A DNA stretch of 16,219 nt from a virus (lineage: Duplodnaviria > Heunggongvirae > Uroviricota > Caudoviricetes). Each line of letters starts with the position of its first letter. Position 1 is the first letter of the stretch. Shown here in pieces: positions 1,041-9,841 of the stretch. The stretch lies in the IMG/VR virus record IMGVR_UViG_2537562231_000027; one strand, given 5' to 3'. Below the pieces are notes generated by a model, which had not been told where the DNA came from, searched no databases, and saw only the letters and a list, made by a program, of their open reading frames with translations. Made by a program: the position numbers and the translations under genes.

Positions 1041-1065
1041 TAAAAAAGCCTTCACTGCGGAAGGC
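1041..1065 (-). terminator. Rho-independent terminator (minus strand)
   Basis: Minus-strand RNA reads GCCTTC-CGCAGT-GAAGGC followed by TTTTTTATTT; the stop codon of the upstream small ORF lies inside the hairpin. Confidence 0.5.
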
Positions 1066-1249
1066 GTCTGTAACAACCGAACTGATAGTCTGCCAGACCC
1101 GCCATAACAAGTTGGGTCAGTATTAACTGACAGCGTTCGCGTGAAAGGTAAGTATTCTGCGCAATCTCCCCGACTGTCGCCGGTTCGGTGACGCTTAATT
1201 CATTAAACACCACTCTGGCGGTTTCTGTCATATCCTGCTGTTTCAGCAT
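1052..1249 (-). CDS. Hypothetical small protein (about 65 aa) with HTH-like segment
   Basis: Internal ATG at 1249-1247 preceded by AAGGGAAAAAGAC; product MLKQQDMTETARVVFNELSVTEPATVGEIAQNTYLSRERCQLILTQLVMAGL... The track ORF 1052..1342 is longer from an upstream alternative start. Confidence 0.4.
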   Translation of the reverse strand: MLKQQDMTETARVVFNELSVTEPATVGEIAQNTYLSRERCQLILTQLVMAGLADYQFGCYRRLPQ

Positions 1250-1371
1250 GTCTTTTTCCCTTTTTCGGTTAACGTGACACACCAATAACTCTTGTCGAAA
1301 AAGCCAGCAAGCTGAAAGACAGGTATTCACCGCCACCAGCACGTTTACTGTACTGGACCGATTTCAGCCAT

Positions 1372-1391
1372 AAAAAAACCCGCTCGCGGGT
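1372..1391 (-). terminator. Rho-independent terminator downstream of Q (tR'-like)
   Basis: Minus-strand RNA reads ACCCGC-GA-GCGGGT followed by TTTTTTTA, about 60 nt after the Q stop. Confidence 0.5.
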
Positions 1392-1447
1392 GAAGTAACC
1401 ACTCTTAACATACTGACATACTTTTTGCGGACCGCACTAATCATTTT

Positions 1448-1828
1448 TTACTTTTTTAGCAGCCAGTCGTCCATCTCCAGTCTTACCCCCAGCACAGACA
1501 AACATCCGTCAATAAACCCTTCGGCTATCTGCATCTCAATTCGTATTGCTTTTTCGCTTTTCTTTCTCGTCCTGGCTATCTGTCTTTTTGATATTCGCAA
1601 CAAATAATGAGCAATGAGAAGCGAATACTCCTCAGGTTTTTTCTGCTTCAGACGAGCAAGACAGTTTTCAATGATAAGTCCGTCATCATCGCAGCAGGCC
1701 GGACGTGGTTTAGTGGCAGATGGTAAAAGTCCTTTGAATCCGGCAGCGATCGGAGAATAGTCCACCCCGGTGTTACCACTTGCAGCCCATGCCCCCCAGC
1801 GTTCAAGAACTATCTGAATATCACGCAT
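1448..1828 (-). CDS. Late-gene antitermination protein Q (QuuD/Phage_antitermQ-type)
   Basis: MRDIQIVLERWGAWAASGNTGVDYSPIAAGFKGLLPS...ACCDDDGLIIENCLARLK matches my recollection of the short Q proteins of DLP12-type prophages. ATG at 1828 has SD GGAGAAAG 6 nt upstream; the track start at 1843 is a TTG. Confidence 0.8.
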   Translation of the reverse strand: MRDIQIVLERWGAWAASGNTGVDYSPIAAGFKGLLPSATKPRPACCDDDGLIIENCLARLKQKKPEEYSLLIAHYLLRISKRQIARTRKKSEKAIRIEMQIAEGFIDGCLSVLGVRLEMDDWLLKK

Positions 1829-1845
1829 CAACTTTCTCCACAAAA

Positions 1846-2835
1846 TCAGGACAGCACACCAATCGCCAGCGCGCGATCGATAAAACGAAATATCAGCTCC
1901 AGTTGGGAACCATACTTCTCTTCAAATGCCACGGTATCCGCATGCAGTTCGTCATGGTGTTTTCTGCACAAAGGCAACACAAAAAGGTCATGCGCTTTTG
2001 TACCCATTCCACCCTGACCATGACCAATCAGGTGATGAGGATCGTCGGCTGGCTTACCACAACATGCACACGGCTGTGTCTTAACCCAGCGCGTGTACTT
2101 TTCATTAACCCAGCGACGACGTTTTGGGCGTAACATAAAAGACTCCGGCGACTCTGGATCCACTTTCAGCGCCAGCACCTTTTTCGCTTTATCCTGGATA
2201 ATGCTGGTGGCAGGAACCGAAGGAACAAGGTCACTCTCCCGGGTGACAGACGGCACAACAGGCTTCGGTAATCTCAGTGCCTTACGGGCTGCACTTTCCG
2301 GTAAGGCATCAGCCAGGTCATTACGAGCCAGCCACCAGCACAGTTCCGGCATTGTCACAACGTGACTGTCATCAAAACCGAGATCCCGACGCACAACAGA
2401 CAACACCCAGCGGGCACAGTTATCCGTTGCCATTGATTCCAGCCGTTCCGTGAACTGATCGCGCAGCTGGTTATCGCAGTGCCAGCACAGACGGATTGCG
2501 CCCGGAGCGTGTCGCATTGTGGTCATGTTCTCGCTGTGCCAGTTGGAATGAGGCCACTGACAGCCCTTTTCACGAAGTAACCAGCTTTCAAGACATTCCA
2601 CGCCACCAGCACGACGGATCACTGCCTCATTGCGGAACACGGCCCGAACGGCAGGATCATCCGCCAGCGGTTGTGATGCCGCCGGAACGGCACCACTGGC
2701 AAAAGATGAATAACGTTCCGGCTCAGGCTCCAGCAGGACACGCCCCTGCATAAACAGGGGCATCAGCTCTGAACCGGGCCTGAACAATACGATCCCCATA
2801 CGCGGGGCAATTTCAGGGGTCAGTAGTGCTCTCAC
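1846..2835 (-). CDS. Phage protein with C-terminal Cys/His-rich HNH-like zinc-binding motif (DUF968-like?)
   Basis: C-terminus CACCGKPADDPHHLIGHGQGGMGTKAHDLFVLPLCRKHHDELH. Sits in the nin-region position between the replication genes and Q. Start ambiguous: GTG at 2841 (track) or GTG at 2835, which has GAGG 5 nt upstream. Confidence 0.65.
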   Translation of the reverse strand: MRALLTPEIAPRMGIVLFRPGSELMPLFMQGRVLLEPEPERYSSFASGAVPAASQPLADDPAVRAVFRNEAVIRRAGGVECLESWLLREKGCQWPHSNWHSENMTTMRHAPGAIRLCWHCDNQLRDQFTERLESMATDNCARWVLSVVRRDLGFDDSHVVTMPELCWWLARNDLADALPESAARKALRLPKPVVPSVTRESDLVPSVPATSIIQDKAKKVLALKVDPESPESFMLRPKRRRWVNEKYTRWVKTQPCACCGKPADDPHHLIGHGQGGMGTKAHDLFVLPLCRKHHDELHADTVAFEEKYGSQLELIFRFIDRALAIGVLS

Positions 2836-2886
2836 GGTCACCTCAGCGAACGGTATTGCATGAACGCAGAAGAAAAAATTCAGCCA

Positions 2887-3144
2887 TCACGCAGTAAACT
2901 CCTTCACCAGTATTTCAAACTGGCTTACCTGTCCTTCCAGTTCCGCCACGCAATCCACCAGCTCATCCACCGCCTTTTGTGTGCGGTGTTTTGCCTGCAG
3001 CAGATCACGAAGCGCCGGAGTAAGCTGCTTGCGGAGCGTATCTTTTTTCACGCTCGTTTTTTCCATCTGTTCAGCACAACGAAGCATCTCCTGCGCCTGC
3101 CGACGAAGTTGTTCCGGTGAAACAGTGGTTGTTCTGTTGTTCAA
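2887..3144 (-). CDS. Hypothetical coiled-coil protein (85 aa), TTG start
   Basis: TTG start overlaps the DnaB-like stop (TTGA); GGAG about 10 nt upstream. Product is charged and helical-looking (QLRRQAQEMLRCAEQMEK...). Confidence 0.4.
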   Translation of the reverse strand: MNNRTTTVSPEQLRRQAQEMLRCAEQMEKTSVKKDTLRKQLTPALRDLLQAKHRTQKAVDELVDCVAELEGQVSQFEILVKEFTA

Positions 3145-4541
3145 AATAAACGCTCCGTTTTACTACCCGACATGCGGTTATTGCTGTATCTGCGCGGATT
3201 GCCCGGCGTCATGGGAGTGGAAAGAACCCGGGCACTCTCCTGGTCCACAGGCAGAAAATGCCCGTTATGAAAACGCCGGTAAATGGTACCCAGCGTACCA
3301 TTACGCTGTTTCGTGATGTTGATTTCTGCTATGCCTCTCGCCTGTGTCTCCGGGTTGTACACCTCATCCCTGTAAAGCATCAGAATGATGTCTGCATCCG
3401 CCTCTATTTCCCCTGAGTTTTTCAGGTCCGAGTTCATGGGGCGTTTATTGGGTCTGGATTCCACACCGCGGGAGAGCTGGCTCAGAGCAATCAGCGGAAA
3501 ACCGCCGGATTTTGCCAGGCTTTTTAGTCCCTTTGAGATTTCCCCCACAGCAAGGTCGTGACGCCCCATGCTGCGGGTTTTAATCAGGCCGAGGTAATCG
3601 ACCACCACCAGCGCCGTTTCCGGGTGTTTCATCCGGTGGTGCCTCGTAGTTGCACATATCTCATCAATGGTCAGGTTTGCCTGGTCCACCATCCAGATAT
3701 TACGCCCCGTCATTCGTCCCACGCCCTGTGAGAAACGTGCCCAGTCTTCGTCTTCAAAACGGGCAACTGACTTAAGACGGGATACCGGCATTCCCCCGGC
3801 AGCAGACACCATACGTTCACCAATCTGAATGTTCGCCATCTCCATGGTGAACAGAAGCACGCCATGCCCCTGCTCAGTCACCTTGTCGATGATATCCAGC
3901 GCAAGTTCGGTTTTCCCCATCGAAGGACGAGCCGCAATGAATACCAGGTCGCCTGGCTCCATACCGCCCGTTTTTGCGTCCAGCTCATCAATACCGGTCA
4001 TCAGCGCCCTGGATTTCTCCAGTCCCTGATTGCGGCATTCAACACGGTCGACCACTTCTGGAAGGACATCATCAATGTGAACCGGCTGAATGACGCCCTT
4101 TCCGGTCGACAGTGAGGCCATCATGTTCTGCGCATCCTTCAGGGCATCCTCGGCTGCTTCACAGGTATACGCATCACGTAAATTCTGTAATGCTTCAGTC
4201 AGTGTTTTTTCTGCATCGCGCAGTACGGCATTACGCCGCAACGCTGCGACATAGTGCTCCAGTGAAGACTTCACCCAGGTTTTGCGTCCGGTGTCGGTAA
4301 TCACCGGGGCAAGTTCCGGCATCTCATTGCACAGCAGTACGGGGTCAATGACGCCGGATACACGGGCCTGTCTGCAAATTCCCGCGTAAATATCCCTGTA
4401 CTGACGCACGAAAAAGACATCCGCCGGAAGCGTGGCCAGAATATCCATCACTTCCGGATCAGCCCCACGCAGAAAAAACGCACCGATGACAGCTCCTTCC
4501 AGGTCATCATTACGCCACGCCGGATTTGTCGGGTTTGTCAT
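3141..4541 (-). CDS. Replicative DNA helicase, DnaB family (phage-encoded)
   Basis: Walker A ARPSMGKTELALD and DnaB-like C-terminal RecA fold motifs. ATG at 4541 has SD GAGGTG and overlaps the DnaC-like stop (ATGA); the track start at 4580 is a TTG. Confidence 0.9.
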   Translation of the reverse strand: MTNPTNPAWRNDDLEGAVIGAFFLRGADPEVMDILATLPADVFFVRQYRDIYAGICRQARVSGVIDPVLLCNEMPELAPVITDTGRKTWVKSSLEHYVAALRRNAVLRDAEKTLTEALQNLRDAYTCEAAEDALKDAQNMMASLSTGKGVIQPVHIDDVLPEVVDRVECRNQGLEKSRALMTGIDELDAKTGGMEPGDLVFIAARPSMGKTELALDIIDKVTEQGHGVLLFTMEMANIQIGERMVSAAGGMPVSRLKSVARFEDEDWARFSQGVGRMTGRNIWMVDQANLTIDEICATTRHHRMKHPETALVVVDYLGLIKTRSMGRHDLAVGEISKGLKSLAKSGGFPLIALSQLSRGVESRPNKRPMNSDLKNSGEIEADADIILMLYRDEVYNPETQARGIAEINITKQRNGTLGTIYRRFHNGHFLPVDQESARVLSTPMTPGNPRRYSNNRMSGSKTERLF

Positions 4542-5428
4542 GCTGCCACACCTCTGATATGCGCGCGGTAGCTTTCCCAACCAAACACCAGGCAGTTACG
4601 CCCACCATCAGTAACGCGATCCACAATCCGTTCACCAATGGATTCCTTAAGCTGTTCAAACGTCAGGTTGCTGATCAAAATTGTCGGTAAAACGCTTTCG
4701 TAACGCGCATTTATGATTTCCTGCAGGATGGTTATCTCCGCAGGCGTACCGAACTGCACACCAACCTCATCGATGATAAGCAGATCCAGCGATGCAAAAT
4801 GATTAATCACTTCATCGTCAGTGCGCTCAGAGTTGTGGCGCCAGGTATTTTTCACCGCACGGGTAAGCCGCATTACATCCGTGATTTCTATGGTTGCCTG
4901 GTGGTGGCGAATAATATTTTTTGCCATTGATACAGCCAGGTGATTTTTACCGGTACCACAATTGCCAATCATGACCATGCTGGTGCCTGCAGCGAGACAT
5001 TTCTTCCAGGAAGCGGCATAGCGCTGACAGGCTTCAAGGTTTTTCTGTGCGTCAGTATTCACCGCCTGATAATTCTCAAACTCACAGTCCTGGAACCGGC
5101 GGGCAATACCGGCCTGATCGAGTAATTCACGAACCTTCAGGGCGCGTAATTCGTCATACACGCGGCCCAGCTCCTCACTGAGGCAGGACAGGCAACCGGA
5201 CACCCGTTTGACAGCTTTCCCCCTTACATCCGGGCCAGTCAGCACATAGCGCGTGTATTTTCCGTGTTTCCCGCAGGACACCGTCTCAGTGCTTTGCACC
5301 CAATGCTCACAGCGCCACGGACGCTTTCCGCCACGGACAAATGCCAGCTCCTCTTCCAGGTCTGCCTTGCGGTTAAGTAACTGCGCTTTGTCGTGTTGCA
5401 TGTGTTGTTTGTTCAGGAAATTAGTCAT
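4538..5428 (-). CDS. DnaC/IstB-like AAA+ helicase loader
   Basis: Walker A GNCGTGKNHLA and Walker B LLIIDEVG. ATG at 5428 is preceded by GGGGAGGGTGAAA; the track ORF extends further upstream without an RBS. Confidence 0.85.
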   Translation of the reverse strand: MTNFLNKQHMQHDKAQLLNRKADLEEELAFVRGGKRPWRCEHWVQSTETVSCGKHGKYTRYVLTGPDVRGKAVKRVSGCLSCLSEELGRVYDELRALKVRELLDQAGIARRFQDCEFENYQAVNTDAQKNLEACQRYAASWKKCLAAGTSMVMIGNCGTGKNHLAVSMAKNIIRHHQATIEITDVMRLTRAVKNTWRHNSERTDDEVINHFASLDLLIIDEVGVQFGTPAEITILQEIINARYESVLPTILISNLTFEQLKESIGERIVDRVTDGGRNCLVFGWESYRAHIRGVAA

Positions 5429-5447
5429 TTTCACCCTCCCCACAAAA

Positions 5448-6341
5448 TCACCAGTTGAAGTTCGTTGAGCCGTAGTCCTGTTCACTGAATCCCGAGATCG
5501 GGAGGCTTTTGCCCCGCCCACCTCCGGGGGCTGCTGGCTGTTGCCAGGATTCCTCGAAATGACGATCGGGTCCAAAGAACGTCGACGCCTGCTTCACGAA
5601 CTGGGTACCGGTATTTCCAGAGACACGCACCCAGGCGGCATACCGCTTCACGCCATCAAGCATGTTCTCCGGTTTTATTCCCTCCCTGATACGTGCTTTC
5701 CAGGCTTTGAAGGCTGCTGACTTGGAATTGCCACCAGCACGTTTGGGATATTCCTGCCATGCCTGTTCAAATTCCGGTGAATATTCCTGTCGGGCAGAAC
5801 GCGCTGGTGCAGACGCGTCAGCGGATGCGCCAATAGTGTTTTTACTCTCTGTAGTACTCTCTGAAGTAATCTCTGTTGTATTCTCTGTAAGATCGAAATT
5901 GGTTTTCCCTTCACCGCGGCGAGGGGTTTCCCGTGTCCGCGGTGAAGGCTTTCCCTCCTCCGCGAAATTGGGTTTTACAGTTTCCCGAAAACGGGTTTCC
6001 CCATTTCGGGAAAACTGATTGTTTTCATTGATAATTTCATTAAGGCGCTCACAATCTATACGGTAGAACATTTTGTGCTCAAGACGCTTGTTGGTTTCAA
6101 CCAAAATGCCTCTGGACACAAGATGCTTACGCGCTACAGCCTGTTGTTCAAATGTAAGTCCGGTTTCGTGTTGTATCTCTTCACGCGTTTTATGTACGCC
6201 TTCCGCTGCATGTGCTTTATCCTGCCAGTAAAAAATCTGACCAAAGAAAATAACAGCGTGCGGACTTCCCATGTATTTAACGAGCCCAGGGTAATAAGCA
6301 ACCGGATGCCCAAAATCGAGCAGAAGATCAGACGGACGCAT
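5448..6341 (-). CDS. Phage replication initiator (O-like replisome organizer) with internal origin repeats
   Basis: ATG at 6341 preceded by GGGAGGTG. Central T/E/S-rich linker is encoded by tandem DNA repeats. Lies immediately upstream of the DnaC-like and DnaB-like genes. Confidence 0.75.
   Translation of the reverse strand: MRPSDLLLDFGHPVAYYPGLVKYMGSPHAVIFFGQIFYWQDKAHAAEGVHKTREEIQHETGLTFEQQAVARKHLVSRGILVETNKRLEHKMFYRIDCERLNEIINENNQFSRNGETRFRETVKPNFAEEGKPSPRTRETPRRGEGKTNFDLTENTTEITSESTTESKNTIGASADASAPARSARQEYSPEFEQAWQEYPKRAGGNSKSAAFKAWKARIREGIKPENMLDGVKRYAAWVRVSGNTGTQFVKQASTFFGPDRHFEESWQQPAAPGGGRGKSLPISGFSEQDYGSTNFNW
5842..6060. repeat. Candidate replication origin inside the initiator gene: four 12-bp tandem repeats, five TTTCCC-core iteron-like repeats, adjacent AT-rich tract
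   Basis: 12-bp repeats GTAnTCTCTGnn at 5842-5889. TTTCCC cores at 5904, 5927, 5950, 5981 and 5997 (first three 23 bp apart), with a local palindrome CCCGAAAACGGG. AT-rich tract at 6020-6060. Confidence 0.5.
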
Positions 6342-6561
6342 AGCCACCTCCCAGGCGTTTAAACATTTTTCCGGACTGAAACGCCACTAGTGGGTAACTG
6401 ATGGTGTAGTTACGCCCCAGTAATTCACACACAACTTTCTGGCTTTCGGTGCTGACCAGGCAAACCCGCAGAACGCGACCGTCGCTGGTGGCGAACCACT
6501 GCCCCACACGGGGGCAACGGTTGTGTCGGTGATACAGAGAATTAACGAGGCGGCGAATCAT
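6328..6561 (-). CDS. Hypothetical protein (77 aa)
   Basis: ATG at 6561 with SD GGGAGGTG 6 nt upstream; ATGA overlap with the upstream gene's stop; 3' end overlaps the initiator start by 14 nt. Confidence 0.55.
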   Translation of the reverse strand: MIRRLVNSLYHRHNRCPRVGQWFATSDGRVLRVCLVSTESQKVVCELLGRNYTISYPLVAFQSGKMFKRLGGGYASV

Positions 6562-6920
6562 GGGCGCACCTCCCATTGATTACAGCGGAAAGCTGTATGA
6601 TTCAGGCTGGTTTCAGCTTCATGGAATGCCTCAATGCAGCTCTCGTAGTACCGCATTGTGCGCAGACTTAACCCAAGCTGAAGCATCATCAGGCCATCAA
6701 GAGTGATGTAATAACCACGCAGGGAGTCACCGTAGATGTGATAAGTACCCGGTATGAAATTGCAGGTAAAAAACTCGCGTGAGCAGTTCAGATACTCGAT
6801 TTTGTCAACGATGTTCTGGTGCATTCGCTTAAAGTGGCAGGCAACATGCAGGGAGAAAATAACGGCCTTGCCGTTGACAACTTCAATTTTCAGGTATGGG
6901 GAAGTTGGGACAGTAGCCAT
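6558..6920 (-). CDS. Hypothetical protein (120 aa), Cys/His-containing
   Basis: Internal ATG at 6920 with SD GGAGG 8 nt upstream; product MATVPTSPYLKIEVVNGKAVIFSLHVACHFKRMHQNIVDKIEYLNCS... The track ORF extends to an ATG at 7220 through GC-rich, low-complexity sequence with no RBS. Confidence 0.5.
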   Translation of the reverse strand: MATVPTSPYLKIEVVNGKAVIFSLHVACHFKRMHQNIVDKIEYLNCSREFFTCNFIPGTYHIYGDSLRGYYITLDGLMMLQLGLSLRTMRYYESCIEAFHEAETSLNHTAFRCNQWEVRP

Positions 6921-7085
6921 GATGGCAGCCTCCGTTGACTGTGGAAAACTTCCACCACCGGAGCTGCGAAACTCACTGGTGGCAGACTGAACAGGGTTCG
7001 CAGTACCGGCGTCAACGGAGACCGGCGAGCCTTTCGGCTCCCCTGCCCAGCCCACCATAATTCTGGCGTGCGTGAGCGCGGACGA

Positions 7086-7106
7086 TAAAAAAGACGCTGG
7101 CGCGTC
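7086..7106 (-). terminator. Candidate intrinsic terminator in the early-right operon (tR1-like)
   Basis: Minus-strand RNA reads GACGC-GCCA-GCGTC followed by TTTTTTAT. Short 5-bp GC stem. Confidence 0.4.
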
Positions 7107-7304
7107 ATATATCGCCGTTGACAATTCCGGGCTGCGACCCCCGGCACCCGCTTTATAAGGTGCGGAGACAGTGTAACGTCCCGAAATTGCAGAATCAATA
7201 TTTGGTCTTGAAATGATCATATAGCTGCTGATATCTTTAGAACTGTTCTTGGATGTTTCGGAGCCGTTTTATGCGAAACAGCTCCCCGTTATTGATGTTG
7301 AGTG

Positions 7305-7329
7305 AGCCGGGTTACTCCCGGCTTTTTTT
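7305..7329 (+). terminator. Rho-independent terminator on plus strand, antisense to the early-right operon
   Basis: AGCCGGG-TTACT-CCCGGCT followed by TTTTTTT; the T-run ends at the Rha-like stop codon. No U-tract on the minus strand, so it is unidirectional. Confidence 0.55.
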
Positions 7330-8036
7330 CACCGCTGCCAACCAATAACCTGAAATAACCCCATTTTCGGGTGATACCAGCGAGTCCCTCGCGGTTCTGC
7401 TTCCTCCATAACCCGATAAAAAGCAGCCATAAACGGTTCCACAGCAACAATTGCGCGACGTGACAACAATCCGTCCGGCGTCATGAACTCATGGGTGTCT
7501 GTAGGAATCTGATAGGCGTTCACCAGATTGCGGCATTTATCATCTGACAAACCGGTTTTTGCTTTCAGTTGGCGATATCCGGCATAGCCCTCACGAATAG
7601 TGCCCTTTTTAATTTGCTCGACTGTTTCAGCAACGTGGCTGACTTTTTCTTCCACCTGAGTGATCCGTTTCTGCTGACGAACTGCTTCAAGAGCCATCGC
7701 GGCAACCATTTCGATTTCGCTCATTGGCTTACGGATCTGTTCTTCCAGTTCGCGCCAGCGATCTACCAGGCGAGCAGTGAATTCAGGACAGAGCTGTGCG
7801 ACGACAATGATGCTGTCGCGCTTACCTCGTTCACCTTCGAATACATACGCGCTAGAAAATCGGCGAGGCCCAAGTGATTGTTTATTCTCAATTTCCACAG
7901 TCTGTGGAAATTGGATGATTCCCTTTTTAGCCAGTGTTTCAATAGTTCTCTTAACACTATCTGGTCGGCTTCCCACCAGCTCTGCGATCTCAACGCTGGT
8001 CATGGATGCTTTGCCGTTAAAAATTGCGGTGTTCAT
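7329..8036 (-). CDS. Phage regulatory protein, Rha family
   Basis: N-terminus MTSVEIAELVGSRPDSVKRTIETLAKKG...RLVDRWRELEEQ resembles the Phage_pRha signature. SD AGGAG 7 nt upstream; ATG overlaps the Cro-like stop (ATGA). Confidence 0.8.
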   Translation of the reverse strand: MNTAIFNGKASMTSVEIAELVGSRPDSVKRTIETLAKKGIIQFPQTVEIENKQSLGPRRFSSAYVFEGERGKRDSIIVVAQLCPEFTARLVDRWRELEEQIRKPMSEIEMVAAMALEAVRQQKRITQVEEKVSHVAETVEQIKKGTIREGYAGYRQLKAKTGLSDDKCRNLVNAYQIPTDTHEFMTPDGLLSRRAIVAVEPFMAAFYRVMEEAEPRGTRWYHPKMGLFQVIGWQR

Positions 8037-8323
8037 TGTTTATCTCCTGCGTGTATTCCATCCGCTCTGTGTGGTGAACTTGGATTTAGGCTTTTGCGTA
8101 ACAAGTTAGGAATTCCATCTTCAGGGTGAGGATAAAGATCTGGCCTTAAGCCATGAGGCGTAACCTTCCATGCAACTACTTCACATACTCGTAAAACGAA
8201 ACGAGCAGGAATTGTGCTTTTTGAAAACCACTGATTCACCGCTTGCGGCGTCACACCAAGATTTCGCGCTATGGCATTTTGCGCAATTAATGCACGAAGT
8301 TTGTCGTAATCATTTCCTTCCAT
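8033..8323 (-). CDS. Cro-like HTH regulator (YdaS-type)
   Basis: LIAQNAIARNLGVTPQAVNQWF...LRPDLYP is HTH-like. Divergent from the cI-like gene across a 133-bp regulatory region. Confidence 0.7.
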   Translation of the reverse strand: MEGNDYDKLRALIAQNAIARNLGVTPQAVNQWFSKSTIPARFVLRVCEVVAWKVTPHGLRPDLYPHPEDGIPNLLRKSLNPSSPHRADGIHAGDKQ

Positions 8324-8456
8324 AACAAAGCACCAATATTAACTTTATAAATCAAGAATACATCAAGTTTAAATTAACATGCAAGTTGCAAAAGGATCGA
8401 ATACACTAAAATCAAGTAAAGATTTATCCTTGTAAAGAAACCCACAGGATTTGGTC
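8324..8456. promoter_or_regulatory. Divergent immunity control region (OR-like) between cro-like and cI-like genes
   Basis: AT-rich. Contains three direct ATCAAG motifs, the palindrome TGCAAGTTGCA and the near-palindrome CAAGTAAAGATTTATCCTTG. Individual promoters not confidently resolved. Confidence 0.5.
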
Positions 8457-9146
8457 ATGAAGAACGTCAAAAACACGGAAAATCGAATAGCCGCGATGCT
8501 GAAAGCAAAAGGATGGACTCAGGCTCAACTGGCCCGCAAGTTAGGTGTGAGTGCGCAATCAGTGCAGTACTGGACAACAGGAAAAACATTTCCACGGAGT
8601 GATAAGCTCGCGCATTTATCAGAGATTAGCGGTTATCCACAATCCTGGTTCTTAGGTGAAGACTCCTCACCAACCTTTTCTTCGCAAGAGAAACACCAGA
8701 CAAGAACAGATAGCGTCGTATTTAATGTCCTTGATGTTGAGTTTAGTTGCGGTGATGGAACTCATGTCCGTGGTGACTTGATAGATGTAGTGCGCTCAAT
8801 AGAACTTGATCCTGAATATGCCCGACGTCTTGTTGGAAATCGGGCATTCAAAAATATAGAAATAGGTAACGCCAGAGGAGACAGTATGGCTCCCACAATC
8901 TCACCTGGCGACCTTCTTTTTCTTGATAAGACAGTAACTTATTTTGATGGCGATGGTATTTATGCATTTTGTTTTGATGGAGAATGCTACGTGAAAAGGC
9001 TTCAAAAAATTGGAAGCAAAATCATGGTGTTATCTGATAACCCCAATTATCAACCATGGAGCATCGAAAAAGAGGGGTTAGCTCTGCTTTATATCCAGTC
9101 TAAAGTGATCTCATCAGTACCATTCAACATAAACAGATTTGGTTAG
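8457..9146 (+). CDS. Prophage repressor, cI/LexA-like (N-terminal HTH, C-terminal S24 peptidase)
   Basis: HTH WTQAQLARKLGVSAQSVQYW; S24 motifs GDSMAPTISPGDLLFLDK and YVKRLQK (Ser/Lys dyad). ATG at 8457; the track start at 8451 is a TTG. Confidence 0.85.
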   Translation: MKNVKNTENRIAAMLKAKGWTQAQLARKLGVSAQSVQYWTTGKTFPRSDKLAHLSEISGYPQSWFLGEDSSPTFSSQEKHQTRTDSVVFNVLDVEFSCGDGTHVRGDLIDVVRSIELDPEYARRLVGNRAFKNIEIGNARGDSMAPTISPGDLLFLDKTVTYFDGDGIYAFCFDGECYVKRLQKIGSKIMVLSDNPNYQPWSIEKEGLALLYIQSKVISSVPFNINRFG

Positions 9147-9158
9147 TCTTTGATTTTA

Positions 9159-9180
9159 ACGGGCTTTGCCCGTTTTTTTT
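9159..9180 (+). terminator. Rho-independent terminator after the repressor gene
   Basis: ACGGGC-TTT-GCCCGT followed by eight T residues, 13 nt after the cI-like stop. Confidence 0.7.
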
Positions 9181-9210
9181 CTGCCTGAAATATACGATAT
9201 CAATTTTTTC

Positions 9211-9239
9211 TTGACAGCCTGTTTCCCAAAACATAATAT
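9211..9239 (+). promoter_or_regulatory. Strong sigma70-type promoter (PL-equivalent or accessory-operon promoter)
   Basis: TTGACA (9211-9216), 17-bp spacer, TAATAT (9234-9239). Flanked by dyads ATCAATTTTTTCTTGAC and ATCAATTATAACTTGAT that share ATCAA/TTGAT half-sites with the OR-like region. Confidence 0.6.
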
Positions 9240-9292
9240 CGCACCATCAATTATAACTTGATTTGATTCAATTTAAAATTGTTGGCGGATAT

Positions 9293-9841
9293 ATGAAGAC
9301 ACTAAAAGCAACTCCAGAAACAACTAATTTTATCAACTGCGGCTGTGTTACGCTTAAGGGCTTAGAACTTGATTCCTTTGCATTAAATATTGCAAATTTG
9401 CTAAGTGCTGTACGCACATTCCATCTTCTGGATTGTGCTCGCTCAAAGGAACTGGGCATTGAGGTAATGGAATTTATCCATGAATATGCTCTATCTGCTG
9501 CTTCTCCTGCACAACAAAAACAATCCTTCCCTGAAAGCTGGCTGGTTAACCTTCGCACCCAACGCGAAGCCTGCGGCTTAACAACCGCCGAACTCGCCAG
9601 GCTGCTCGATCTCGATGAAGAAATTATCATCCAGTGGGAGAGCGGAGAGTATGAACCAACTATCAGTATGCTTATCCCACTGGCAAATATTCTTGGCTGC
9701 GATCCGATGTGCCTGTTAACTGGTGAGGTTACTCCTCCGGAGCAACCAAAAAGTGAGGAGCAGCAACACCATGACGCATCTCAACAAGTTTGCCCCTTAT
9801 CTCGCGAAGCTCTTCTGCGGAAGAACCAATACCAATGGTGA
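9293..9841 (+). CDS. Hypothetical protein with C-terminal XRE-type HTH domain (gene A)
   Basis: HTH GLTTAELARLLDLDEEIIIQWESGEYEPTISMLIPLANILGCDPMCLL; N-terminal about 90 aa unrecognised. ATG at 9293; the track start at 9263 is a TTG. Confidence 0.6.
   Translation: MKTLKATPETTNFINCGCVTLKGLELDSFALNIANLLSAVRTFHLLDCARSKELGIEVMEFIHEYALSAASPAQQKQSFPESWLVNLRTQREACGLTTAELARLLDLDEEIIIQWESGEYEPTISMLIPLANILGCDPMCLLTGEVTPPEQPKSEEQQHHDASQQVCPLSREALLRKNQYQW

Follow-up and report, generated by a model that had tools for sequence, protein, structure and literature searches.

Why does a terminator that points along the plus strand lie in the middle of an operon transcribed from the minus strand? This question is raised by positions 7208-7329 of a 16,219-nt stretch of viral DNA (Caudoviricetes; IMG/VR record IMGVR_UViG_2537562231_000027), the whole of which was analyzed and is referred to as the window. 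An initial annotation had proposed that this terminator and a promoter-like sequence upstream of it delimit a small antisense RNA whose geometry resembles that of the OOP RNA of phage lambda.

In the window we recognize the immunity and replication region of a lambdoid E. coli prophage that resembles phiP27 or Stx phages. A CI-type repressor gene (8451-9146, S24/HTH, identified by ORF and Pfam analyses) is located on the plus strand. All convincing ORFs between 1052 and 8323 form an unbroken run on the minus strand, and those scanned against Pfam correspond to phage regulators and DnaB/DnaC-like replication proteins. In addition to a Cro/YdaS-like gene (8033-8323, ORF and Pfam), this run contains a gene for a 235-aa Roi/Rha-like DNA-binding protein with a TGA stop codon (7329-8036, weak Pfam matches to Phage_pRha and HTH), an annotated "ash" ORF (6558-7220), a DnaC-like replication gene (4538-5575, ORF and Pfam), and a DnaB replication gene (3141-4580, ORF and Pfam). 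In relatives, the 235-aa gene is annotated as Roi or as a Rha-family regulator, and the "ash" ORF as an ash family protein or an antirepressor. The early-right operon reads PR, cro, Roi-like gene, isrK-C4-antirepressor, replication genes, and the plus-strand terminator does lie inside a minus-strand operon (ORFs at ~1050-8323), as had been claimed. The candidate unit lies in a 108-bp gap that separates the Roi-like stop codon from the start annotated for the "ash" ORF. Homology to other phages stops at ~7203 on one side and within the last Roi-like codons on the other, so the unit is positioned at a mosaic junction. Elsewhere in this region, ATCAAGT/ACTTGAT repeats that look like operators are present in the interval between cro and the repressor gene (8340-8425) and past the repressor terminator (9205-9285). 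A candidate for the leftward early promoter is TTGACA-17-TAATAT (9211-9239), which is close to consensus and lies on the plus strand.

The minus-strand operon had been recognized in the initial annotation, but the adjoining isrK-C4-antirepressor module, which was revealed by Rfam, had been missed. On the minus strand, an isrK RNA gene (RF01394) is found at 7087-7163 with 58.7 bits against a gathering score of 50 (E = 1.3e-10), and a C4-type antisense RNA gene (RF01695) at 6975-7062 with 78.8 bits against a gathering score of 45 (E = 2.3e-14). The isrK promoter (minus strand, 7170-7198) was read from the sequence as TTGATT (7198-7193), a 17-bp spacer, and TACACT (7175-7170), a reading that is anchored by the start of the Rfam isrK model at G7163. 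This promoter stretch is conserved in many phages, and the activity of PisrK has been demonstrated in Salmonella Gifsy-1 (PMC4825925). An in-frame ATG at 6920 has its ribosome-binding site in GUCAACGGAG (6939-6930), and the loop of C4, CUCCGUUGAC (7020-7011), can pair with this sequence without a mismatch. A copy of the C4 target, GUCAACGG (7122-7115), is also present in IsrK, which fits a role of IsrK as a decoy for C4. Such C4/IsrK logic is known from P1 C4, P4 CI/seqA, and Gifsy-1 IsrK (PMC4825925, PMC10111431).

Both the isrK and C4 genes fall within the first ~100 codons of the "ash" ORF, and the Pfam Phage_ASH match (residues 16-108) covers exactly these two RNA genes. We examined the distribution of polymorphic sites over codon positions in 40 related sequences. 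Sites at positions 1/2/3 numbered 30/25/69 from ATG 6920 onward and 43/40/36 upstream of it; a third-position bias that begins only at this ATG suggests that the true antirepressor gene is probably 6920-6558 (120 aa). The "Ash domain", which is described as having no known function (PMC8951638), is probably, at least in this lineage, the two RNA genes translated on paper. The C4 region (6937-7060) and an internal part of the Roi-like gene (7826-7975) are local hot spots of divergence, with 31-85% identity between relatives that are otherwise 93-100% identical around both. Each occurs in several freely assorting types. These hot spots may be specificity regions, for RNA heteroimmunity in the case of C4 and for DNA binding in the case of the Roi-like protein. 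The variable part of the Roi-like gene also contains a perfect 12-nt inverted repeat with a 1-nt gap, CAATTTCCACAG c CTGTGGAAATTG (7889-7913), which could be a protein-binding site or a hairpin.

The terminator, which together with a preceding GTTGAG box spans 7297-7329 on the plus strand, was analyzed by a terminator scan, folding, shuffling, and comparison of alleles. Its 5' arm GAGCCGGG (7304-7311), loop TTACT (7312-7316), and 3' arm CCCGGCTT (7317-7324) form a stem of eight pairs, six of them G-C, with seven T residues at 7323-7329 and a hairpin energy of -14.7 kcal/mol. It thus has the G+C-rich stem, the 5-nt loop, and the directly following U-tract of an intrinsic (Rho-independent) terminator. 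The T-run ends, as initially described, at the stop codon of the Rha-like gene, T7329 being the complement of the A in the TGA of ORF 7329-8036. This terminator is far beyond chance. One as good (at least 8 pairs, 6 G-C, and 7 T) was obtained in 0 of 300 dinucleotide-preserving shuffles of the whole window, both strands included, and even a looser class (6 pairs, 4 G-C, and 6 T) appeared at a rate of only 0.06 per shuffle. The only other plus-strand terminator of the looser class lies after the repressor gene (9158-9174).

When the same hairpin is read on the minus strand, it is preceded by A7 and followed by CACUCAAC, with no U-tract. Sense transcription would therefore not terminate there, and the A/T run is explained solely by plus-strand termination. 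The unbroken minus-strand run from 1052 to 8323 contains no plus-strand gene upstream that the terminator could serve. The stem is the same in all loci examined except for one C-to-T change, which leaves a G:U pair when read on the plus strand. The loop is variable, and every variant retains 6-8 T in the T-run. No covariation was observed in the terminator, whose stem hardly varies among the loci. A 12-mer located just before it, TTGATGTTGAGT (7292-7303, plus strand), has an exact copy in the same orientation in the repressor gene (8731-8742, plus strand). This repeat is probably a coincidence (we estimate that ~0.16 are expected in the 2.3-kb region).

The two promoter hexamers named in the initial annotation, TTGAAA at 7208-7213 and TATCTT at 7232-7237 on the plus strand, were both recovered by a promoter scan of the window. 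With a TG at 7229-7230, they give a candidate antisense promoter (P_as) of the form TTGAAA-18-TGaTATCTT (7208-7237), whose extended -10 element spans 7229-7237. Its two hexamers, a spacing within 16-18 bp, and the TG at -15/-14 predict a sigma-70 promoter of the extended -10 type. P_as matches 9 of 12 consensus positions in addition to the TG. Lambda pO, which was used as a positive control in the same scan, has an equal score (TTGAGT-17-CATAAT, 9/12 with TG), and the neighboring isrK promoter has a lower one (8/12, our count). The weaknesses of P_as are its 18-bp spacer and its TATCTT -10 hexamer, both of which are suboptimal. By itself the match is at chance level for the window, in which the scan found 16 promoter-like sites versus 19.8 expected. 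From such counts, we estimate that ~0.002 sites with 9/12 matches and a TG would be expected on the right strand within 60-120 nt upstream of the terminator. P_as lies 92 nt before the end of the T-run and is arranged back-to-back with the isrK promoter, the two -35 hexamers being 9 bp apart.

Comparison with related prophages revealed that the ~140-bp segment which includes the unit has three diverged alleles: A (this window), B (e.g., MS8345), and C (e.g., tcmA_3). The body of the segment is only 26-70% identical between alleles, with insertions and deletions, and the flanks are 93-100% identical. Such a sharp drop between near-identical flanks indicates that a small module has been exchanged by recombination rather than worn down in place. 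Kept in all alleles are the -35 hexamer, the TG, the -10 hexamer (TATCTT or TATTTT), the 18-bp spacer length, the motif GTTCTTGG, the GTTGAG box, the terminator stem, and a run of 6-8 T. The -35 sequence TTGAAA is the same in alleles A, B, and C, with one variant, TTGGAA (L114), among ~130 loci; alleles B and C have TGgTATTTT as the extended -10 element. In every allele, the spacer (7214-7231) measures 18 bp without any indel, and a 6-nt indel is present just past the -10. In alignment A1, the hexamers and the TG are identical between alleles at 13/14 positions, versus 8/15 in the remaining spacer (hand count).

All ~130 recovered loci carry intact elements. These include 28 loci from a metagenome scan which was anchored solely on the two flanks, so that the elements of the unit were not selected for. 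All 28 have intact hexamers and an intact terminator, and they represent alleles A-C with no fourth allele. Conservation was measured in E. coli prophages only, and the three alleles represent few independent lineages; within this scope, the promoter-terminator pair appears to behave as a transcription unit that has been conserved despite the divergence of the three alleles. Allele identity varies freely with respect to the Roi variable region and the C4, cro/cI, and antirepressor types, implying that the segment acts as a module of its own. Such free assortment would also be unexpected if the variable body were an operator co-evolving with one of these proteins, and co-evolution with a protein was rejected on the same ground, as the alleles follow none of the four types. 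A role as a CI operator was likewise discarded. The CI-operator-like ATCAAGT/ACTTGAT repeats (around 8349-8423 and 9249-9273) show only a loose resemblance to allele A (~7205-7219), and this is not retained in alleles B and C. Inspection by eye found no LexA box.

If P_as fires, the predicted plus-strand RNA would extend from ~7242-7245 to ~7329 and have a length of 85-88 nt. The size of ~80 nt proposed in the initial annotation, which had placed the promoter about 75-85 nt upstream, therefore stands approximately, the predicted length being slightly greater. At or near the predicted 5' end, alignments of the alleles identified a 5' box, GTTCTTGGAT (7245-7254, plus strand), the core of which, GTTCTTGG, is unchanged in alignments A1 and A3. 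The distance from this core to the -10 is 7 nt in alleles A and B and 13 nt in allele C, suggesting that the box is part of the transcript and not of the promoter. Downstream of it, folding indicated a central hairpin, GGAGC.GTTT...AAAC.GCTCC (7260-7285, plus strand), which is formed in all three alleles by a different sequence in each. This hairpin is statistically weak, with z-scores that range from -3.0 to +0.4 depending on allele and strand. In allele A, the minus strand forms a perfect 10-bp stem (z = -2.96), and the plus strand has a C.A mismatch (z = -1.24). RNAalifold gave a poor consensus fold on the sequence alignment. All five substitutions observed in stems are transitions, each of which keeps a G:U pair on one strand (three on the plus strand and two on the minus strand), and transversions are confined to loops and unpaired parts. 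This pattern suggests that pairing matters and is compatible with either strand.

The predicted RNA overlaps the Roi-like coding sequence by a single nucleotide, the last base of the stop codon, and covers no ribosome-binding site; a gain from antisense pairing is therefore not obvious. A small ORF on the plus strand was considered and rejected, since allele B has no ATG and the frame in allele A has no stop before the terminator and runs through it. Searching the whole window against Rfam 15 gave nothing on 7208-7329 at E <= 1. The best result of a focused Rfam search was sroD, with 24.5 bits against a gathering score of 50 and a match to the terminator half only. Neither the candidate RNA nor its hairpin sequence was reported in the literature searched.

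We then asked how widely the unit is distributed. It (7204-7345) was detected in 237 of 5426 complete E. coli genomes (~4%), in every case on the chromosome, and its neighbors in all 237 are annotated as a "Rha family regulator" on one side and an "ash family" ORF on the other. Further carriers are nine phage records, ~100 IMG/VR contigs, and 28 metagenome contigs, and Shiga-toxin-converting phages of the phiP27/Eru type are included among the carriers. Examples of carriers are E. coli O111:H- 11128 (NC_013364, ~2,433,077-2,433,218), O145:H28 RM12761, ST131 isolates, and the phages ASU11 and PhiR49_2. A backward terminator at the isrK junction is absent from phiP27, ST64B, SfV, mEp460, Stx1 phages, and other Stx2 phages, as well as from ArgO145, PhiR12_1, and APSE-7. 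These phages share the isrK promoter but have coding sequence upstream of isrK. The unit is also absent after distant Roi homologs (Yersinia, Providencia, Proteus, Atlantibacter, and others), where the next gene follows directly. Thus, the unit is lineage-specific. In the Stx1a phage Stx1_14040 (L013, ~1235-1425), we read a 61-codon ORF whose start lies 2-3 nt past the stop codon of Roi and whose TGA falls within the -35 hexamer of isrK. In existing annotations, this stretch is instead fused to the "Ash" region, giving proteins of 340-383 aa. The junction upstream of the isrK promoter is likewise coding in SfV, mEp460, and ST64B (L010-L012).

Considering a strong one-directional terminator without a plus-strand gene, a promoter of consensus quality at a suitable distance from it, conserved elements, and a modular segment, a real plus-strand unit is the simplest account. 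The elements, their non-chance quality, their conservation across the alleles, and their fixed position are seen directly in the DNA. From these we infer that the promoter fires, where the transcript starts, and each step of the mechanism given below, and we lean toward the view that the candidate RNA is made. In this proposal, 7208-7329 would be a self-contained plus-strand unit, in which P_as would start an RNA at ~7242-7245 and the terminator would end it at ~7329, yielding a non-coding product convergent with the early-right operon. Its full complement would be found only in the 3' UTR and spacer of read-through transcripts from PR, between the Roi-like gene and the isrK promoter; transcripts initiated at the isrK promoter would lack the target. 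Since PR read-through RNA holds the sole perfect complement, an OOP-type cis-antisense action would be the most likely one. Pairing with PR read-through mRNA could form a duplex of ~85 bp cleavable by RNase III, and such cleavage might uncouple or destabilize the cro/Roi message and the antirepressor/replication message. Convergent transcription over ~85 bp might possibly add transcriptional interference. Taken together, a real cis-antisense RNA of ~85-88 nt, convergent with the early operon and OOP-like in layout, has in our judgment about an even chance of being correct.

A more far-reaching version of the cis-antisense proposal, which we consider improbable, takes the three freely assorting alleles as an antisense-RNA cassette that determines specificity between related prophages. 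The RNA of a resident prophage would then pair with and disable early-right transcripts of other phages, incoming or co-resident, only if these carried the same allele. Next to the CI repressor and the C4/IsrK antirepressor switch, it would provide a further, RNA-based layer of immunity or exclusion, with its diversity kept by selection for new specificities.

Several other explanations of the unit were weighed. Divergent firing is common among bacterial promoters, and the terminator might act as an insulator which halts such firing from the A+T-rich region upstream of isrK, the short RNA being a functionless by-product. Its use would be to prevent an antisense run through the Roi-like gene and cro and a collision with transcription from PR. 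The back-to-back arrangement of P_as and the isrK promoter, whose -35 hexamers are 9 bp apart, the absence of any coding sequence or ribosome-binding site under the RNA, and an RNA body that is free to diverge are all consistent with this explanation. However, one would not expect the -35, TG, -10, and spacer length of a by-product promoter to persist through allele replacement as the surrounding sequence changes, and the conserved 5' box is left unexplained. Moreover, other phages with the isrK promoter have coding sequence and no terminator at this position, so insulation is not generally needed. We regard this explanation as unlikely, though the least so of the alternatives. A trans-acting small RNA of the Hfq type appears a little less likely again. 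Here, the conserved, probably single-stranded 5' box GUUCUUGGAU would be a seed for mRNAs of the host or of other prophages, the variable hairpin a structural spacer, and the terminator hairpin with its U7-8 tail after a U-rich stretch an Hfq-binding module. A G+C-rich hairpin with at least 6-8 U is indeed the usual 3' end of Hfq-dependent small RNAs. In addition, the 5' box and the pre-terminator sequence are kept across alleles whose bodies differ, a conservation that pure cis-antisense action does not need because complementarity is then automatic. Against a trans role, the only occurrence of the 9-nt complement TCCAAGAAC in 1.18 Mb of contigs from related phages is the cis site, and the best other pairing in the window (9735-9750) is with allele-specific sequence and is at chance level by our estimate. 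Conservation of the box could equally result from a start-site requirement or from a function in the sense mRNA.

The sense strand itself offers another possibility, namely that the hairpins belong to the 3' UTR of the cro/Roi message, where they would serve as an exonuclease barrier or a processing site, and that the plus-strand signals are incidental. The perfect 10-bp central stem of allele A on the minus strand, which is mismatched on the plus strand, agrees with this, as do two allele A variants (GGAACC and AGAGCC) that both keep G:U pairs on the minus strand only. Yet variants in allele C and in the terminator stem (GAGGT, GTC, and GCTGGG) retain pairing on the plus strand only, and the 6-8 A before the minus-strand hairpin are always kept but would have no role. 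The conserved promoter hexamers and their spacing would also be unexplained. Although we consider this very unlikely as the main function, it does not exclude an antisense RNA, since a sense hairpin and its antisense mirror always coexist. Two further sense-strand models, a put-like antitermination RNA and sib-like retroregulation, were dropped for lack of a matching feature, with no Rfam match and no sense-strand terminator found. Finally, the unit might be a recombination scar of no present function, the remnant of a vanished plus-strand gene (its 3' end and terminator) beside a chance promoter-like match. Its location exactly at a mosaic junction and the abundance of promoter-like matches in the window are what such a fossil would show. 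It is nevertheless hard to see in this light why three alleles exchanged by recombination each keep promoter, spacing, 5' box, and terminator, or why the elements are intact in ~130 loci, including 28/28 from the non-selecting scan, with no decayed copies seen. We find this the least credible explanation.

On the evidence of sequence comparison, the candidate may plausibly be regarded as a new antisense small RNA restricted to a group of prophages of E. coli, Stx phages among them. Lysis-lysogeny control is poorly known in Stx phages of the phiP27/Eru type (PMC8951638). If the RNA is real, it would be a third RNA regulator beside IsrK and C4, placed where the early operon enters the antirepressor and replication genes, and it could influence prophage induction and toxin release. 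It would also provide a second, independently evolved case of the OOP layout, suggesting that temperate phages have repeatedly arrived at a short convergent RNA placed just behind their first regulatory genes. If the unit is only an insulator or a by-product, the finding would be an ordinary one.

How far, then, does the candidate resemble known phage RNAs? [quoted passage not shown] Similar to OOP, the candidate is predicted to be a short RNA that opposes the early-right operon and starts from a promoter located right after the gene next to cro, to end at an intrinsic terminator, to have a similar size, and to point toward the repressor gene. P_as and pO are both extended -10 promoters with equal consensus scores in the same scan. 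On the other hand, no homology was found; a MAFFT alignment of OOP with alleles A, B, and C showed only generic terminator similarity. By our reading, OOP covers ~50 nt of cII coding sequence, whereas the candidate covers 1 nt of the Roi-like gene. Instead of cII, the gene upstream is one of Roi/Rha type (weak matches to Phage_pRha and HTH), and in place of gene O the downstream neighbor is the isrK-C4-antirepressor module. Furthermore, unlike OOP, the candidate has a promoter back-to-back with the isrK promoter and occurs in three alleles. The OOP region of lambda itself gives no Rfam match, and hence Rfam has no OOP model. The lack of homology, the 1-nt overlap, and an upstream gene other than cII indicate that the candidate is not a member of the OOP family. 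Accordingly, the OOP-like geometry initially proposed holds for the layout (antisense, convergent, with its own promoter and terminator, ~80 nt) but not for homology, for the cII gene, or for coding overlap. OOP-BTP1 of the Salmonella prophage BTP1, which was detected by RNA-seq and runs antisense to a cII gene at its 3' end (PMC7067206), is also an RNA in the OOP position and shows that such positional analogs are transcribed in other lambdoid prophages. It was detected experimentally and lies at cII, whereas the candidate is known from sequence prediction and lies elsewhere.

The antirepressor control region has its own precedents. Sar of phage P22 covers the ribosome-binding site of ant and blocks its translation. 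A sar-type action was rejected for the candidate, as the ribosome-binding site and ATG of the antirepressor gene (6939-6918) are outside the predicted RNA; the ribosome-binding site (6939-6929) is ~300 nt away and is instead targeted by the C4 loop. What the two have in common is that sar is a small antisense RNA of immI, convergent with its operon and expressed from a promoter within an antirepressor control region (PMC12197685), and that the candidate is likewise predicted to be a small antisense RNA convergent with an operon in such a region. The C4 RNAs of P1 and P7, the CI RNA of P4, and IsrK of Gifsy-1 belong to the same type of locus and share the logic of RNA-controlled antirepressor expression. 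They are located on the sense strand, are processed from or terminated within the operon transcript, and are matched by Rfam families. The candidate differs from them in lying on the opposite strand, upstream of their promoter, and in having no Rfam family. The C4 RNAs of P1 and P7 are heteroimmunity alleles, and it is these that the hypervariable, allele-like body of the candidate recalls.
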